Source: an uncultured Spirochaetota bacterium
Lineage (GTDB): Bacteria; Spirochaetota; Brevinematia; Brevinematales; JAOACQ01
DNA: 64,000 bases
Assembly (NCBI GenBank): GCA_963835575.1
Contig: CAWIGG010000005.1
Location: 288,001 to 352,000 of the forward strand
Direction of reading: 5' to 3'
A model generated the notes under the pieces. It did not search any database, was not told where the DNA came from, and saw only the letters and a program-made list of their open reading frames with translations. Every line of letters starts with the position of its first letter. Positions within the stretch are counted from its first letter, which is position 1. Made by a program: the position numbers and the translations under genes. Positions 6,165 through 15,534 of the stretch are shown here, in pieces.

Positions 6165-6850
6165 ATTTCCCATCTAACTTAAATAATAAGAATAAAACCC
6201 CACTTGTACTATAATGATGATATGATAATGAAAATGATTTGTCAAAGTTTTATGTAAAAATTAGTTGAATTTTATTGATGATATTATATGATAAAGCTAA
6301 AATAATCAAGAGAAAAAATCAAAAGGATTCTTAGAAGGAGAACTAATTGAATCAAGATAATTATATTAAATTAAATGTGGACTATTCTGATAAAGAAATA
6401 GCAAAAACTTTGGGCGCCAAGTGGGATTCCGTCAATAAAATCTGGTTTATTCATATGGAATCAGATATTTTAAAATTTACCAAATGGTTTGAGTCGCCAT
6501 ATATCGATGTTTTTGCCAGTGTCCTTTATACTTACTTGGCAACTGAAATCTGTTGGAAATGCGGCAAGGAAACATCATTTTTGACGTTATTAAGCGATAG
6601 ATTTATTTTTATTAAGAATAAAGATAATAACGACATTAACAAAGAAAATAAAAATATATCTACTGAATTGGAAAATCCGGACGAAACATGCCGGGGTTCC
6701 GGGTGAAACATGCCACCCAATCCGTGTGAAACATGCCGGGTAATCCGGATGAAATGTTACCACCTACCATAAGAAAAAGCGAATCAAACACGAAGAATTC
6801 CTCCGAGAATGTTAAGCTAATCCTTCTTGAAAAAATAAGAAGGAGTTGGT

Positions 6851-8407
6851 ATGCCGAACAGGAGGAAGCCTATGAAGAAAATCCGGGAAGTGATCCGGAT
6901 GATCAAAGAAAACGGCCTGAGCTGCCGTGTGACATCAAAGGCCCTGGATATTTCCAGGCCAACCGTGCAAAGATATATATCCAGGTTTGAAAAAAGCGGC
7001 CTAACCATCGCGGAAATTTATGAAATGAGCGATTCTGCTTTAATTGAAATTTTCGAATCGATGGCAGAAGGTGACAGTCAGGAAGAAACCGAAAAGGATA
7101 ATCTGTACAATGAATTCCCCGAATACAGTAAGGAACTACTGCGTACAGGCGTCAATCTGAGATTGCTTTGGGAAGAATACCTGAGAAAATATCCAGGAGG
7201 CTATCGCTATTCTCAATTCTGCTATCACTACGGCATCTGGAAAGGTTCTCTTGAAATATCCATGCACCAGGAATACAAGGCCGGAGACAAGCTTTTTGTT
7301 GATTTTACCGGCGCGAAATTTCCGATTGTAGACCGTTCCACAGGAGAAGTTATAGAGAAAGAGGTATTCGTAGCCATTCTTGGAGCAAGCCAGTATACAT
7401 ATGTGGAAGCGACGGATAGCCAGAAGAAAGAAGACTTAATCAGGGCTATCGAGAACGCGTTGTATTACTTCGGAGGATCACCAAGAGCCATAATACCCGA
7501 TTGTTTAAAAAGCGCTGTAACGTTGGGCAATAAATATGAACCTGCAATTAATTCTGAATTTCAGAATTTTTGCAGACATTATTCTATGTGTCCCCTCCCT
7601 GCAAGACCATATAAACCGCGAGATAAAGCACACGTTGAAAACGCCGTAAAAATCACCTACAGCTGGATATTTGCCGTTCTCAGGAATAGAGTTTTTTATA
7701 CTCTGGGAGAATTGAATATTGCTATACGGGAACAATTGGGAATCTATAATTCAAAGAAGATGCAGAAGCTCAAAGTCAGCAGGCGGGAATTTTTCGAGGA
7801 AACAGAACGGAAAGAGTTAAAACCGCTTCCGAAGGAAAGATACAGTTTTAAAAGCTTCTCAAAAGCTAAGATCCAATTCAACTATCATGTCTGTCTCAAA
7901 GAAGATTCTCATTACTACAGCGTTCCATATCGATATAGAGGCAAAATGGCAGATATTGTTACTTCCGATCGGACAGTGGAAATATTTGTTGATAATATCC
8001 GCATTGCAGCCTATCCACGGGACCGTAGAAAGCAAGTTTATACAACCACACATGAACATATGCCGCCCCATCACAGGTGGGTCGGAGACTGGAATCCGGA
8101 GAAGTTAACACATTGGGGTAAGTCGCTTGGTCCGGATGTTGAAGAAATGATAAAGAGAGTCCTGCAAAGCAGGGATTATCCAGAACAGGCATATAAGGTC
8201 TGTCTGGGCATCTTAAGCCTGGCCAAAAAACTCGGAAAAGAAAGGCTCGATAAAGCCTGTAAACGGGCGCTTGATTTTCAGTATTATTCATATCAGGGAA
8301 TAAAGCGGATTCTGGAGAAAGGCCTGGATAATTTTGAGGAAGAATCGGTACTGTTTCCGGCCGTTAAGATGCATGAAAATATCCGCGGAAGAGAATATTT
8401 TGAATAG
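6851..8407 (+). CDS. istA: IS21 DDE transposase IstA
   Basis: HTH N-terminus, LFVDFTG, IIPDCLKSAV, PRDKAHVE, HYYSVPY. Confidence 0.95.
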   Translation: MPNRRKPMKKIREVIRMIKENGLSCRVTSKALDISRPTVQRYISRFEKSGLTIAEIYEMSDSALIEIFESMAEGDSQEETEKDNLYNEFPEYSKELLRTGVNLRLLWEEYLRKYPGGYRYSQFCYHYGIWKGSLEISMHQEYKAGDKLFVDFTGAKFPIVDRSTGEVIEKEVFVAILGASQYTYVEATDSQKKEDLIRAIENALYYFGGSPRAIIPDCLKSAVTLGNKYEPAINSEFQNFCRHYSMCPLPARPYKPRDKAHVENAVKITYSWIFAVLRNRVFYTLGELNIAIREQLGIYNSKKMQKLKVSRREFFEETERKELKPLPKERYSFKSFSKAKIQFNYHVCLKEDSHYYSVPYRYRGKMADIVTSDRTVEIFVDNIRIAAYPRDRRKQVYTTTHEHMPPHHRWVGDWNPEKLTHWGKSLGPDVEEMIKRVLQSRDYPEQAYKVCLGILSLAKKLGKERLDKACKRALDFQYYSYQGIKRILEKGLDNFEEESVLFPAVKMHENIRGREYFE

Positions 8408-8419
8408 GAGGAACTGAAT

Positions 8420-9163
8420 ATGACCAATGAAGCAACTATTGAAAAAATGCAGAAGATGAAACTGCATGGGATGTCCAGGGCGTTTGAGGATATCATTGCC
8501 GGTAAAACGCCTGACGGCCTGACTGCCGATGAAACAATTGCGCATCTTGTGGATTCGGAATGGGACGAAAGGTATAATCGGAAACTGTCATCTTTAATCA
8601 AAAGAGGGCGTTTCAGATATCAGGCTGGTCTGGAGAATCTTTCTTACCGTGCGGATAGAGAACTGGATAAAAATCTGATATTGAGGCTTTCGAATTGTGA
8701 TTGGATACGAAAGAAAGAAAATATGATTATTACAGGCGCTACCGGCAGCGGGAAAAGCTATCTTGCATCAGCTTTCGGTAATCAGGCTTGCCGGCAGGGC
8801 TACAGGACCCTTTATTTCAACTGTTTGAAGATTTTTACCCGGTTAAAATTCGCAAAAGCGGAAGGTAGTTACTCAAAAGAAATGAATTTTATCCAGAAGC
8901 AGGATTTATTGATACTGGATGATTTTGGTCTTGAAATTCTTGATACACCCTCAAGATTGTCTCTTCTGGAAATGCTTGAGGACCGGCATGGTAAAAACTC
9001 TACTTTGATAACTTCTCAGCTGCCGGTAAAAGATTGGTTTGAAAAAATCGGTGATCCTACGATAGCTGACGCAATCTGTGACAGGATAAATCATTCTGCT
9101 ATTAAAATCGAATTGAAGGGGGTTGATTCTATGCGTAAAATTTATGCTAAAGATTCTGGATGA
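8420..9163 (+). CDS. istB: IS21 helper ATPase IstB
   Basis: GATGSGKS Walker A, LLILDDFG Walker B, TSQLP, ADAICDR. Confidence 0.95.
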   Translation: MTNEATIEKMQKMKLHGMSRAFEDIIAGKTPDGLTADETIAHLVDSEWDERYNRKLSSLIKRGRFRYQAGLENLSYRADRELDKNLILRLSNCDWIRKKENMIITGATGSGKSYLASAFGNQACRQGYRTLYFNCLKIFTRLKFAKAEGSYSKEMNFIQKQDLLILDDFGLEILDTPSRLSLLEMLEDRHGKNSTLITSQLPVKDWFEKIGDPTIADAICDRINHSAIKIELKGVDSMRKIYAKDSG

Positions 9164-9790
9164 AACATGCCACCTGCCTTAAAATGTTTTGGGAATTTTA
9201 GTGTTTTGAAAAGTGGTAACATTTCGCCCGGAACCCCGGCACATTTCACCGGAATACGCACTGAATTGATAGACCAGTTTAGCGTGTTATTCTATGTACA
9301 ATATATGCCAAAAGAATTGATTGATTATTTTAAAAAAGAATGTTCTCTATTTTACACAGACTTTTCAGTAACATTGAAAGATCGATACTGGATGAATCAC
9401 TGTGAGTATTGCAAGGCCAAACTGGGTGATCATTATTTGCATGATGAACCAGAAGTTGATATTTTTTATTGGTAAGGAAATAATTGAGCATGTCAAACTC
9501 GTTGAAATAGATACAACTTACTGTGCTGCAATATCATGTAATGTAAAATCAATAAATGAATAAGTGCAAATCAAAATATTTTACCCCCTTCATATTTAGT
9601 GTTAACATAATTGTTTACTATAAGATCGAAGCAATGGTAAATAAAACTGTTGGACATAGAGGTATTTTTTATTGTTTTTAGAAAGGAACAATAATTAGAG
9701 TAAATTCTATGTCCACTTTTTTCAAGAACAACTCGAAACTATTTCATAAAAGAAAAATATTATGGCCAATTTTAACATAATAATAGAAAA

Positions 9791-10841: not shown

Positions 10842-12237
10842 GAGTTATAATAGAAAGTTGTGTATAGGAATAAATATTATAAAAAAGATGGCGTACCCTC
10901 TATAATTTATTTACGACAATAAACAAAAGGAGGAATACGCCATATGCCGAAGCACAACGAAGATTTTAAGCTCTTACAGGCTTTTAATCAAGATGAAACA
11001 GTAGAATTTTTATGTCTTGAAGAATTGGCAAGGATCGGGGCCAGGGAAATAATCAAGAAGGCTCTGGAAGATGAAATTAATGGGTTTCTTCAGGAGAGAG
11101 AGCATTTAACTATCGAAGACGGGAGAAAGGCAATAGTAAGAAATGGGTATCATAAAGCCCGTCAGATTCTCATTGGTGGAGGGGCTATTGATGTATGTAT
11201 TCCGAGAACAAGGAACCGACTCGGAGGCGACAATTTTCAAAGCCTAATAGTACCGCCGTATATGAGAAAAAGCCTGAGAATTGAGGAAGCCATTCCATTG
11301 TTGTATCTCTATGGAGTCTCAGAGATGGATATGGAGAATGCCTTGAGAGGATTGCTTGGTGAAGAAGCGAAAGGATTATCAGCCTCAAGTATAAGCAGAA
11401 TGAAACAAGGATGGGGTAAAGAATATGATGAGTGGCGGACATCCGATTTAAGCGATAAAAAGTATTGCTATATATGGGTTGACGGCATTTACTTCAATGT
11501 ACAGGGCAGCGAAGACCGTTTATGCACTCTTGTAATGATCGGAGCCAATGAGAATGGTGAAAAGGAGATTATTCTTGTTGAAGAAGGTTACAGAGAGAAT
11601 TCCGAGACTTGGTTAGGGATATTAAGAAACCTAAAAGAAAAAGGTTTGAAAGGTCCTATTCTTTTTATCGGAGACGGAAGCCTTGGATTCTGGAAAGCAG
11701 CCAAAGAAGTATATCCTGAATCCAGATGGCAGAGATGCTGGGTTCATAAGATAAAGAACATTCTAAACAAGCTGCCCAAAGTATTACAGTCAAAGGCAAA
11801 AGAGATGCTTCATGAGATATGCAATGCTCCTGATAAGGATAATGCTATCAAAGCTTTTGAATTATTCCAGGCGGTTTTTAATCCTAAATATCCAGCAGCT
11901 GTCGAATGTTTAGAAAAGGATTGGGAGCTTATGATCGAATTTTATAACTGTCCGGCGGAACATTGGGTACATATCCGTACGACAAACGTAATAGAATCTA
12001 CCTTCTCTACAGTTCGATTAAGAACTAAAAAGATGAGAGGCTGCGGAACCAGGGAAACGATTCTAATAATGGTCTATAAATTACTGGATAAGGCATCCAG
12101 GCGATGGAGAAAATTAAGAGGTTATGAAAAGATTAGCCTTGTATTGGAAGGCGCTGTTTTTGAGAACGGAGAGCTTGTAAAAAAGGCAGCATAAAAAAAT
12201 GAGAGGGTATGTCATACACAACATTTGACAAAAACTC
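10842..12237 (+). mobile_element. IS256-family insertion sequence
   Basis: Imperfect IRs GAGTTATAATAGAAAGTTGTGTAT / GAGTTTTTGTCAAATGTTGTGTAT; no target duplication seen. Confidence 0.85.
10944..12194 (+). CDS. IS256 (mutator-type) transposase
   Basis: RNGY, YIWVDGIY, IGDGSLGFW, QRCWVHK, IRTTNVIES. Confidence 0.95.
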   Translation: MPKHNEDFKLLQAFNQDETVEFLCLEELARIGAREIIKKALEDEINGFLQEREHLTIEDGRKAIVRNGYHKARQILIGGGAIDVCIPRTRNRLGGDNFQSLIVPPYMRKSLRIEEAIPLLYLYGVSEMDMENALRGLLGEEAKGLSASSISRMKQGWGKEYDEWRTSDLSDKKYCYIWVDGIYFNVQGSEDRLCTLVMIGANENGEKEIILVEEGYRENSETWLGILRNLKEKGLKGPILFIGDGSLGFWKAAKEVYPESRWQRCWVHKIKNILNKLPKVLQSKAKEMLHEICNAPDKDNAIKAFELFQAVFNPKYPAAVECLEKDWELMIEFYNCPAEHWVHIRTTNVIESTFSTVRLRTKKMRGCGTRETILIMVYKLLDKASRRWRKLRGYEKISLVLEGAVFENGELVKKAA

Positions 12238-12311: not shown

Positions 12312-12355
12312 ATCCCTATATAAATAAATATTATAGAGTATTTGGAGGGGATAAA

Positions 12356-12943
12356 ATGAATAAACTAAAGCTTACAGGGAAACATATATTATTATTACTA
12401 TTATATTCGCCTGGTATAGAGAATAACATAAATGAACCAATTAAAGGTCGAACAAGATTAATAAAAATGATGTTTTTATTTAATGAAGAGATAAAAAAGT
12501 CTTTTCTTTCTGATTCAAAAATAGAAATTGAAAAATATCAAGCGTTTTATCCCTGGGACTATGGGCCGTTTTCTAAAGAAATCTATGATGATATAGAGTT
12601 TTTTATTAATAATCGTTTCATTAAAAGTGCATTTTCACCGGATAGTATGATGGATTTTGAAGTAGATGAACTTGAAAATTGGGCAAATAGTGTATATTTA
12701 GAAACAGATAAAAACACTTTATTAAGTGACCAGAACGAAGAAGAATTTTTATTGACAGATAGGGGTATTAAATTTGTAGAAGAGAAGATTAAAAATATTC
12801 TTTCTACAAATCAAATTGATATATTAAGAAAGTTTAAAAAAAATATTAGTGAAACATCTCTTTTCGCTATATTGAGATATATCTATATGAAATACCCGGA
12901 TTATACAACGAAATCAAAGATCAAGAATAATGTATTAATATAA
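12356..12943 (+). CDS. Panacea/SocA (DUF4065)/YwgA-like winged-helix protein
   Basis: GRTRLIKMMFL, FYPWDYGPFSKEIYDDI, LTDRG, YIYMKYP; GGAGG RBS. Confidence 0.75.
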   Translation: MNKLKLTGKHILLLLLYSPGIENNINEPIKGRTRLIKMMFLFNEEIKKSFLSDSKIEIEKYQAFYPWDYGPFSKEIYDDIEFFINNRFIKSAFSPDSMMDFEVDELENWANSVYLETDKNTLLSDQNEEEFLLTDRGIKFVEEKIKNILSTNQIDILRKFKKNISETSLFAILRYIYMKYPDYTTKSKIKNNVLI

Positions 12944-12952
12944 AAGGAATTT

Positions 12953-13498
12953 ATGGGAAATAATATTATTAGTTTTATTCCACTTTTTTTAGCTTTTTTT
13001 AGTTTATTAATATCTGAAATGCTTAAAAGCAAAAGAAGCTCAGAAATTACTTTAAAATATCGTTTTTTTAATTCACTTATTATAGATAAATTTGAGGATT
13101 TCATTCATAAAATAACTGAGCACTATTCATCAGAGGTTTTAAGATTAATTACAACTTTAAATCCCGATAAAATTACATTAGATGAATTTATGTTTAAACC
13201 TTTTAATTATGAATACAAAGGGTTTTATAAAGAATATGAAAAACTTGAAGAAAGAAAAATTTCTTTAAACAGGGCTTTATATAGAATTCAAATATTTAGA
13301 TTTATTTTTTTAGTTATTTTAACTATTGTTTTACTATTGTTTATTTTTAACTTAATAATTCAATCGCCTATTTTTAATTATATAAATATAATAGTTGCAA
13401 TTATAATTTTTATTATTATGCTTATCTATATGATGGATTATATTCGAATTAGTAATAAATTAGATGATATTGAGAAAGATTATGACTTTTCAAAGTGA
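12953..13498 (+). CDS. Membrane protein (one N-terminal, two C-terminal TM helices)
   Basis: Hydrophobic segments; tightly coupled to both neighbours. Confidence 0.7.
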   Translation: MGNNIISFIPLFLAFFSLLISEMLKSKRSSEITLKYRFFNSLIIDKFEDFIHKITEHYSSEVLRLITTLNPDKITLDEFMFKPFNYEYKGFYKEYEKLEERKISLNRALYRIQIFRFIFLVILTIVLLLFIFNLIIQSPIFNYINIIVAIIIFIIMLIYMMDYIRISNKLDDIEKDYDFSK

Positions 13499-13889
13499 AA
13501 AAGAATTAGAAGAAATTGCTTTACCTTTTTTTTCTGAAATGAACTTTAAATATCACAGACAAGTTCCTTTATTTAATCGTGTTATCGATTTTGTAGCACT
13601 CGACAATGAAGAAAATGTGATAGGTATTGAATTTAAATTAAAAAATTGGAAAAGAGCTATTTATCAGGTTAAATCAAATATAAATGCATTCGACTATGGT
13701 TATATTTTTATTCCATCAATTGGAAATATGGGTGTTGTTATTGATGAAGCAAAGAATCATGGAATCGGGATATTTTGTTATGATCGAAAAGCGGATACCA
13801 TTAACACATTACTTAAACCAAAAAAGAATAACTTAAAATGGTTGCCTAATATTGAATATTTAAAAACATATTTATTAGGAGCAAAATAA
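13482..13889 (+). CDS. PD-(D/E)XK-family nuclease (MmcB/sce7726-like)
   Basis: SEKEL..QVP..RVIDFV..IGIEFKLKNWKRAIYQ..FDYGYI..GIGI; start probably ATG 13482. Confidence 0.7.
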   Translation: MTFQSEKELEEIALPFFSEMNFKYHRQVPLFNRVIDFVALDNEENVIGIEFKLKNWKRAIYQVKSNINAFDYGYIFIPSIGNMGVVIDEAKNHGIGIFCYDRKADTINTLLKPKKNNLKWLPNIEYLKTYLLGAK

Positions 13890-15238
13890 TGGAATTTAAA
13901 AATGGTGCTTGTCTGCATGTTATGTTATATGGTACATTTAAAGAAAACCAATACTTTTTAGGTGATTATAAAGATTCTTTTGATTTAATTGGATTTAACA
14001 GTAATATTGTCGCTCATGCACCTGATGGAATAGCCGCTTTTGTTTCACAACTTAAAAATAAAAACTATTTTATTGATCCGCAAACCTATGCTTTTACTCA
14101 AAGCGCACGTTATATTAGTAATAAAGATAAAAACGGAAAATGGGCTATAAAAAATTCAATAAAGAAATTAGCCGAACATTATGGTACCATTATTAACGAA
14201 AGGATAAATGAAAAATCCGATTTCACACCTATATTACTAAGTGATTTCGATGAGAAGAAAAGTAAAGAACTCTGTGAAAATGTATTAAATTTTGAATTAA
14301 ATACTTTAGATAACGCTATAAAAAATTCAGATTATAAAGACTTTCTTGTTGATGAGGAAGATAAAGTAATTGAGTTAAAACCAAGTTTTTTAATTGCTCC
14401 ATATTTTTTATTAGACCCAGATAATTTAAACGCAGAAATAATACAAAATAATAATTTTATAAAATATTCAAAAGAATTAATAAAAGATAAACAGATTTTT
14501 GCTGAAATGGTTTTACATGAAGAAATAATAGATAATATAAAATTTACTAATGAAATAATAAAAGGATATGAAAATTGTACTGCTGACGGTATTATTTTAT
14601 GGATTGATAATTTAGAAGAATCTTCTGAACAAATTACTGAAAGTTATTTAAACTCATATATAAATTTCTTAAAAGATATGTTAGTATGTAATAAGCCGAT
14701 TATTTTATTACATGGTAGTTACTTATCGATTATTTTATCGAATAGCAAATACCGGCTTTTAGCAGGTGTCGGACATGGAATTGAGTACGGTGAAAGCAGA
14801 TCCGTAATTCCAGTCGGAGGTGGTGTTCCCACTGCAAAATTCTATTTTCCAAAATTCCATAAAAGGGTTGACTACCATCCAGATGCAGAAAATATATTGT
14901 TAGAAAAGAAATGGGATGATAAACCAGATGAATATTTTAAAAATGTATGTGATTGCAATAAATGCAAAGAAATAATAAAAGAACCTGTTATGGAATGTTT
15001 TAGCTTGTTTGGTCTTACTAAGCCAAGTGATAAAAACAATAAATTATATCCAACATCTGATGCATTAGATTTAAGCAGGAGACATTATTTGAATAACAAA
15101 GTTAAAGAATATGATTATTGCAGAAAAACACAAAACAATGAAATATTAGGCGATTTAGAAAAAAATTGTAAAGTTGCGGATAATATTGTTTCATATTCTT
15201 TTAATCATTTGAGAAAATGGCATAATGTAATTAAGTAA
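13889..15238 (+). CDS. 449-aa putative TIM-barrel protein with CxCxxC..H Zn site (TGT/Beta-protein-like)
   Basis: FIDPQTY, LIAPYF, GIILWID, GHGIEYGE, FYFPKFH, CDCNKC..RRHYL; TAATG coupling with nuclease; product is an inference. Confidence 0.6.
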   Translation: MEFKNGACLHVMLYGTFKENQYFLGDYKDSFDLIGFNSNIVAHAPDGIAAFVSQLKNKNYFIDPQTYAFTQSARYISNKDKNGKWAIKNSIKKLAEHYGTIINERINEKSDFTPILLSDFDEKKSKELCENVLNFELNTLDNAIKNSDYKDFLVDEEDKVIELKPSFLIAPYFLLDPDNLNAEIIQNNNFIKYSKELIKDKQIFAEMVLHEEIIDNIKFTNEIIKGYENCTADGIILWIDNLEESSEQITESYLNSYINFLKDMLVCNKPIILLHGSYLSIILSNSKYRLLAGVGHGIEYGESRSVIPVGGGVPTAKFYFPKFHKRVDYHPDAENILLEKKWDDKPDEYFKNVCDCNKCKEIIKEPVMECFSLFGLTKPSDKNNKLYPTSDALDLSRRHYLNNKVKEYDYCRKTQNNEILGDLEKNCKVADNIVSYSFNHLRKWHNVIK

Positions 15239-15291
15239 AATTTTATACAGCAGATTCTTTTTATTTTTTATGGCTCCCTTCCTTTTATTCC

Positions 15292-15526
15292 CGAGGCCAT
15301 TTTCCGACTGGCCATAATCAGCACATCAAATATCTCGATTTATTGACGTGTCATCCGCTGCTATAATAATAGAAGAGAGACACATGCTTTTGACACGGAT
15401 GTCAAAACCGACGCATAAAGCCATTGGACGGCGACATAAGGAGGCTATTTTAATAAAGAATTGTTTCTCAAAAGCCGGATGACACTCCTCCATACGATCA
15501 GACAGCTTCGTATGAAAATGGCCTCG
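15292..15526. mobile_element. MITE-like 235-bp element
   Basis: Perfect 13-bp terminal IR CGAGGCCATTTTC / GAAAATGGCCTCG; internal palindrome TTTTGACA-CGGA-TGTCAAAA. Confidence 0.5.
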
Positions 15527-15534
15527 AAGGCATC

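Follow-up and report, generated by a model that had tools for sequence, protein, structure and literature searches.

Organisation of the cassette and its flanks

The window (the whole stretch of 64,000 nucleotides that was analysed) carries a cassette of four intact forward-strand open reading frames, without internal stops, which is listed together with its flanking elements in Table 1. Genes 1 and 2 are separated by 9 nt, genes 2 and 3 overlap by 35 nt and genes 3 and 4 share 1 nt in a TAATG junction, with an alternative start for gene 3 at Met7 (13482). The GC contents of genes 1 to 4 are 25.5, 19.8, 26.3 and 26.9%, giving 25.2% for the cassette versus 41.8% for the genome, in which each of the four genes was found as a single copy using tblastn. 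An earlier reading of the sequence by itself (the first-pass annotation) had described four coupled, intact, AT-rich genes between an IS256 element and a MITE-like repeat, and both this arrangement and all of the motifs listed for genes 1 to 4 were confirmed.

Table 1. Coordinates of the cassette genes, the adjoining elements and the kinase-containing sister modules. Positions refer to the window or, for the sister modules, to the locus named.
Feature	Position	Strand	Length or basis
IS256-family element, flank, outside the system	10842..12237	+	PF00872 E 3e-63; terminal inverted repeats
GGAGG ribosome-binding site, 5' of gene 1	12344..12348	+	read from sequence
Gene 1 (PAN), Panacea/SocA/DarG-CTD-like winged-helix protein with strongly acidic inserted wing	12356..12943	+	195 aa
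Gene 2 (TM), fast-evolving 3-TM protein, predicted effector	12953..13498	+	181 aa
Gene 3 (NUC), small PD-(D/E)XK nuclease-fold protein	13464..13889	+	141 aa
Gene 4 (BAR), predicted zinc-site TIM barrel, new TGT-superfamily branch	13889..15238	+	449 aa
MITE-like repeat of ~240 bp, flank, outside the system	15288..15527		non-coding; genome copies
Sister module, L189	4819-7592		
Sister module, L190	4637-7428		
Sister module, L191	3568-6347		
Sister module, L192	3899-6368		
Sister module, L193	4743-7492		

The IS256-family element ends 118 bp upstream of gene 1, where this copy may have altered the gene 1 promoter. A recent expansion of the element is suggested by the 34 near-identical copies present across the genome. 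The ~240-bp repeat begins ~50 bp downstream of the cassette, has 19 genome copies of at least 150 bp (68-100% identity) and is partially matched in a genome of the same family. As both elements are repeated genome-wide, neither is specific to the cassette. Elsewhere in the window, an IS21-type element (~6668-9260), present in 8 identical copies in the genome, apparently splits a DUF5710-containing gene into two parts (6347-6706 and 9167-9475, within 6347-9475). In one congener (G002) the cassette lies at a different site and is 74% identical at the DNA level; similarity is limited to window positions 12323-15229, and the adjoining genes are, according to our reading of the ORFs, a large restriction-type gene and phage-like genes. 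No match to the cassette was found in the three other congeners searched.

Panacea-like and nuclease-fold proteins

Gene 1 scored 17.8 bits (E 0.0066) against PF13274, under the cut-off of 25.7, and its predicted structure (pLDDT 92.3) had as best PDB match the M. tuberculosis DarG chain 7yk3 (E 3.7e-3, probability 1.00), which we take to be the DarG C-terminal domain. On this score and fold match, the original label of Panacea-like stands. The protein contains GRTRLxK at residues 31-37 and YGPFS at 69-73, with K37, G70, P71, G137, K161, Y175, Y177 and Y180 invariant in 59 homologues; the residue following G70-P71 is mainly F, giving GPF where Panacea has GPV. The wing (residues 95-131) has a median net charge of -10. 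The PADLOC model PDC-M19A is matched by all 59 homologues, in the window protein over short stretches (best 136-194 on profile positions 72-131 of 294); gene 1 gave no full-length PDC-M19A match and genes 2-4 gave no PADLOC match of any kind, and the cassette was therefore not assigned to PDC-M19. Published work on Panacea proteins shows that they bind and inactivate a wide range of toxins, among them membrane-depolarising ones, and that they need the GPV region for this (PMC8832971; PMC10440598).

Gene 3 contains the motif ID..EFK..Q at residues 41-68, its E..D..ExK..Q site is intact, and E12, D42, E56, K58, Q68 and G102 are invariant in 59/59 homologues. At E 0.01, the family gave 10 member matches over 7 families, mostly of nuclease folds, with members weakly matching MmcB-like, NERD and PDDEXK families. 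The invariant catalytic residues and these weak matches bear out the assignment of gene 3 to the PD-(D/E)XK type, a nuclease fold with putative activity. To sce7726, cited in the first-pass annotation as part of a nuclease-like plus Beta-like gene pair, gene 3 gave only a weak match (E 0.007; profile comparison 0.6%). The median net charge of the nuclease family is +3.

A barrel of the TGT superfamily

Gene 4 is a TIM barrel whose closest structures are TGTs, which supports the fold originally proposed for it. Identity to DpdA and TGT is ~10%, the barrel-TGT profile match was insignificant (hhalign 2%), no PF01702 match was found at E 1, and a TGT family search of the genome returned the housekeeping TGT only. 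The family comprises 500 clusters at E 1e-30 or better and has no Pfam, NCBIfam or PADLOC model. Its window member contains FIDPQTY (61-67), APYF (170-173), GxxYGE (297-302), CxCxxC (354-359) and H399. The putative zinc ligands C354, C356, C359 and H399 occur in 137, 133, 137 and 138 of 138 sequences respectively, with a spacer of 39 residues in gene 4 versus 22-25 in DpdA/TGT, and D63, the Asp after strand 3, occurs in 136/138; the invariant residues W238, E244, H296, E302, R304 and Y319 differ from those of DpdA/TGT. The protein is accordingly described here as a TIM barrel with predicted zinc binding, forming a new branch of the TGT superfamily.

DpdA requires three invariant aspartates, D95, D130 and D256 (PMC10164549). 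When the TGT aspartate positions were located in gene 4 by strand register, not by superposition, D63 alone fitted, strand 4 reading IAPY and strand 8 GVxHG; counterparts of the other two TGT aspartates seem to be absent, which makes DpdA-like DNA modification doubtful. Thus, from the DpdA-like base modification envisaged in the first-pass annotation, the fold and the zinc site are retained, while only D63 has an apparent Asp counterpart.

Recurrence, gene order and effector types

A total of 121 loci were assembled from the window and from barrel-based scans (72, 41 and 4 genome loci and 3 viral loci), all of which contain the barrel by construction. NUC is present in 115/121 and PAN in 110/121. 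Because the same gene set recurs in more than 100 other loci, linkage exceeds chance, and the co-occurrence on which the first reading depended was thereby found. A further 20 loci (18 metagenome, 2 viral) comprised 12 of type I, with the TM gene, 3 of type II, with a SIR2 gene, 1 repeat of a fusion described below and 4 that were truncated. Of the 121 loci, 78 have TM as the fourth gene and 35 have SIR2; none has both, and 8 have neither. The TM and SIR2 genes are thus mutually exclusive, and the swap is real but rare.

The predominant order is PAN-TM-NUC-BAR (74/121), followed by PAN-NUC-BAR-SIR (19/121) and BAR-SIR-PAN-NUC (12/121), and in two viral loci (L085 and L086) BAR-SIR faces PAN-NUC on opposite strands; a serine recombinase adjoins the cassette on the L085 contig. 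Median gaps in co-oriented gene pairs are -4 to -16 nt. Five of the eight loci without TM or SIR2 start at a contig end and one is split by insertion elements. The remaining two are L132 (4067-5908), an in-frame fusion of the first ~345 residues of the barrel to the latter part of SIR2 from which the zinc site and GAG motif are gone, and L068 (7071-12729), where the core trio without effector is directly followed by TnsA/TnsB/TnsC-like (Tn7-like) genes. The fusion was found in two assemblies (L132 and L148) and is probably a deletion remnant.

The loci span 28 phylum labels with a patchy spread: a strong match was obtained in only 2/401 genomes of the host phylum, and the nearest relatives of the window cassette are Omnitrophota and Zixiibacteriota records, not the Treponema locus. 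In FastTree phylogenies built from 102 complete loci, the number of changes in effector label is 2 for the barrel (shuffled mean 27), 3 for PAN and 4 for NUC. The swap goes back to only one or two evolutionary events, and the SIR2 type may have arisen once.

The three transmembrane segments of gene 2, the predicted effector, that the first-pass annotation described were recovered as hydrophobic stretches (5-23, 117-135 and 140-158); the replacement of TM by SIR2 in about one third of loci had been missed. Among 31 homologues only Met1 is invariant, at 11-24% identity to the window protein, the topology being constant and the residues not conserved. Three helices were predicted in 57 of the 78 TM proteins, two in 19 and one in 2, and alignment of the two large TM groups with each other gave a probability of 87%, a figure that hydrophobic bias may inflate. 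As the TM proteins have no conserved residues, a shared small-molecule pocket in the effector would seem improbable. In the SIR2 proteins, the GAG, PxQ, NWD and KLHGS motifs are invariant or almost so and are accompanied by four cysteines; at E 0.01, Pfam SIR2_2 was matched by 23/31 and SIR2 by 19/31, and the PADLOC SIR2 model by 27/31. The type II protein is thus predicted, from its motifs, to be an NAD-destroying enzyme. Membrane proteins and SIR2 are both typical classes of cell-killing effector, SIR2 being used in Thoeris and Kongming (PMC13434031).

Genomic neighbourhood

In 80/81 loci with enough flanking sequence, GC content is lower in the cassette than in the flanks (median -7.6 points). 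Neighbours were scanned against PADLOC at E 1e-10, comparing 127 of 190 nearest neighbours with 127 genes more than 4.5 kb away (from 240). PADLOC matches were found for 27/127 nearest neighbours versus 10/127 distant genes (p 0.004), and top matches to restriction-modification (R-M) or HNH genes for 14/127 versus 1/127 (p 0.0007); these p values come from loci that are partly non-independent, and some of the ORFs called in GC-rich loci could be false. The defence context anticipated for the cassette is therefore enriched, while 100/127 nearest neighbours have no PADLOC match, and most neighbours are ordinary genes. Across the 121 loci, no CD-NTase, Cap9, DpdB/C or queuosine-pathway gene was found as a conserved neighbour, the only widely conserved genes being PAN, NUC, BAR and TM or SIR2; dpdB, dpdC and 7-deazaguanine genes were also absent from the Pfam matches of the 127 nearest neighbours.

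These data bear on two alternatives to a defence system with a sensor and a killing effector. The cassette might be a selfish addiction module of mobile elements, a toxin-antitoxin set of several parts that is lethal to cells from which it is lost and plays no anti-phage role. In favour of this, the Panacea domain is known from toxin-antitoxin systems, 14/127 nearest neighbours encode recombinases, transposases or a coupling protein of conjugation (a count without control) and five viral contigs carry the cassette; against it, a two-gene pair would suffice for addiction, pocket residues of the barrel and nuclease remain invariant at 25-35% identity, R-M genes are enriched nearby and tblastn against 72,556 plasmid and 50,697 phage records gave no match. 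We consider this explanation unlikely. Alternatively, in a restriction-modification arrangement resembling Dpd, the barrel would mark self DNA, the nuclease would cut unmarked DNA, and PAN and the effector would provide a back-up. The TGT/DpdA fold with its zinc site, the intact nuclease site and the frequency of R-M neighbours agree with such an arrangement, but the apparent shortage of aspartates and the lack of conserved Dpd or queuosine-pathway neighbours noted above, together with a nuclease of 140 aa that leaves little room for a recognition domain, make it unlikely as well.

A kinase-linked sister family

Weak barrel matches came from five further genomes in the host phylum. All five encode a three-gene module (Table 1) consisting of a gene-3-family nuclease (E 3e-12 to 4e-16), a Ser/Thr kinase and a barrel that is homologous to gene 4 (hhalign 97.1%, E 6e-11; 4 of 5 aligned) and lacks the zinc site. 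The sister nuclease is longer in 4/5, with an apparent winged-helix insert. No match to the PAN, TM or SIR2 profiles was found in the sister regions fetched, and no PADLOC match was found for the three sister barrels and one sister nuclease scanned. This module is likely a second undescribed system. Since barrel and nuclease both recur without Panacea beside a kinase in five genomes, the two are taken to be the shared core.

Proposed mechanism

The patchy distribution, low GC content and restriction-gene neighbours of the operon, its constant sensor-like core and its membrane or SIR2 gene are most readily explained by an abortive-infection defence system, an explanation that we regard as probable. 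How the parts are wired is a matter of lower confidence. Our tentative preference is for a barrel and nuclease that together form the sensor, with Panacea as keeper of the effector. In this scheme, the barrel would accommodate in its TGT pocket a flipped-out purine, either a modified guanine or a lesion, and would act more as a reader or base-remover than as a base-swapper; the nuclease would cut or process the bound DNA; Panacea would thereby be displaced or destroyed; and the freed effector would depolarise the membrane (type I, as in the window) or consume NAD+ (type II). We infer control of the effector by the Panacea-like protein, and the preferred wiring is favoured by residue 67 of gene 1, just before the GP motif that corresponds to the toxin-binding GPV region of Panacea. 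This residue splits by effector type, being W in 33/34 TM loci and in 0/31 SIR2 loci, and W/Y67 is the sharpest type-specific residue in the PAN/NUC/BAR core; gene 1 is 35-40% identical regardless of effector type. As the effector swap reflects so few evolutionary events, the split may derive from shared ancestry. The GPF motif and sub-cut-off PF13274 score of gene 1 speak against the preferred wiring, as do the rearranged gene orders, which keep BAR-SIR and PAN-NUC together, the insignificant barrel-TGT profile match behind the pocket assignment and the effector-less core of L068.

The rearranged gene orders are better accommodated by a signal-receptor circuit of the Kongming kind, in which the nuclease, restrained by the acidic wing of Panacea as a DNA mimic and unleashed on infection, would make a nucleotide or short DNA product, and a barrel receptor bound to the effector would switch the effector on. 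SIR2 lies directly 3' of the barrel in all 35 SIR2 loci, and PAN is next to NUC in 33 loci, of SIR2 type or without effector, where the two genes are co-oriented, as well as in the two convergent viral loci; the opposite charges of the wing and the nuclease would suit such a restraint, the apparent loss of the TGT nucleophile from the barrel is what one would expect of a non-catalytic receptor, and Kongming itself uses a catalytically dead receptor with SIR2 (PMC13434031). However, type-specific positions in the barrel are weak compared with W/Y67 (3/449, the best 28/34 in TM versus 2/31 in SIR2 loci), the same nuclease family occurs without Panacea in the kinase modules, and PAN directly precedes the TM gene in all 74 full type I loci. 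We regard the signal-receptor circuit as the main rival wiring, possible but less likely than the preferred one.

Returning to the preferred wiring, a bolder extension, which we offer as speculative, is that the barrel, descended from TGT but no longer exchanging bases, is an immune receptor of a new class that reads modified guanines or lesions of phage DNA with a dedicated nuclease. If true, a barrel-nuclease sensor would be wired to at least three unrelated outputs (a membrane protein or SIR2 via Panacea, and a Ser/Thr kinase without Panacea), and a widespread, unrecognised family would turn phage DNA modification into a death trigger. Apart from that extension, the gene set is widespread, apparently unnamed and a strong candidate defence system with two effector types, compact at 2.9 kb and distributed across many phyla, whose natural TM and SIR2 versions allow a clean comparison of one sensor driving unrelated effectors.

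Comparison with known systems

No gene set of this kind is contained in PADLOC 2.0, where gene 1 matches part of PDC-M19A only, and no description of the four-gene system was found in the open full-text literature, although supplementary tables of large screens may list the cluster. The combination was thus, as first stated, not found as a named system. PANGU (10.64898/2026.04.06.716658) is a different system.

The P4 gop-beta-cII system, a validated anti-phage system, and the sce7725/sce7726 pair share the logic of a toxin, Beta and a third gene (PMC9122126). At L083 (1483-3130), a Beta gene and a sce7726/cII-like gene are convergent with a 140-nt overlap; the Beta protein matches PADLOC beta and PD-Lambda-2_C and its sce7726-like neighbour matches cII, which ties the sce7725/sce7726 pair to gop-beta-cII. 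The Beta/sce7725-like character proposed for gene 4 in the first reading was not supported at the level of profiles: comparison of the 138-sequence barrel profile with the 56-sequence profile of Beta (PF14350) gave a probability of 0.6% (hhalign, E 0.09), and no Pfam, NCBIfam or PADLOC match to Beta was found. In addition, no Panacea-like gene is described for gop-beta-cII in the consulted text of PMC9122126.

Kongming and Thoeris likewise couple a sensing module to a SIR2 NADase (PMC13434031), but no deaminase, HAM1, TIR or SLOG was seen among the conserved genes here, and the SIR2 of type II loci differs from theirs in having a zinc ribbon and no fused receptor. With PanAT, SocAB and the DarG CTD (PMC8832971; 7yk3), gene 1 shares its fold and GP motif, and PanT toxins include membrane-depolarising proteins; gene 1 differs from these in being one of four conserved genes, in its acidic wing of ~35 residues and in having GPF for GPV. 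The cassette would widen the known setting of Panacea beyond toxin-antitoxin pairs of two genes, to a sensor-effector circuit of several genes.

With DpdA and TGT, gene 4 has in common the fold, the CxCxxC...H zinc site and the Asp after strand 3, and differs in having no Asp at the strand-4 and strand-8 positions by register and no accompanying DpdB/C. Cap10 of type IV CBASS (10.1101/2025.04.06.647259; PDB 9ntn) has no zinc site, retains D73/D122/D248 and is partnered by a QueC-like Cap9 and a CD-NTase, whereas in the system of the window the zinc ligands are conserved and neither partner is conserved nearby. The cassette would represent another route for the TGT fold into immunity, after Dpd and type IV CBASS.
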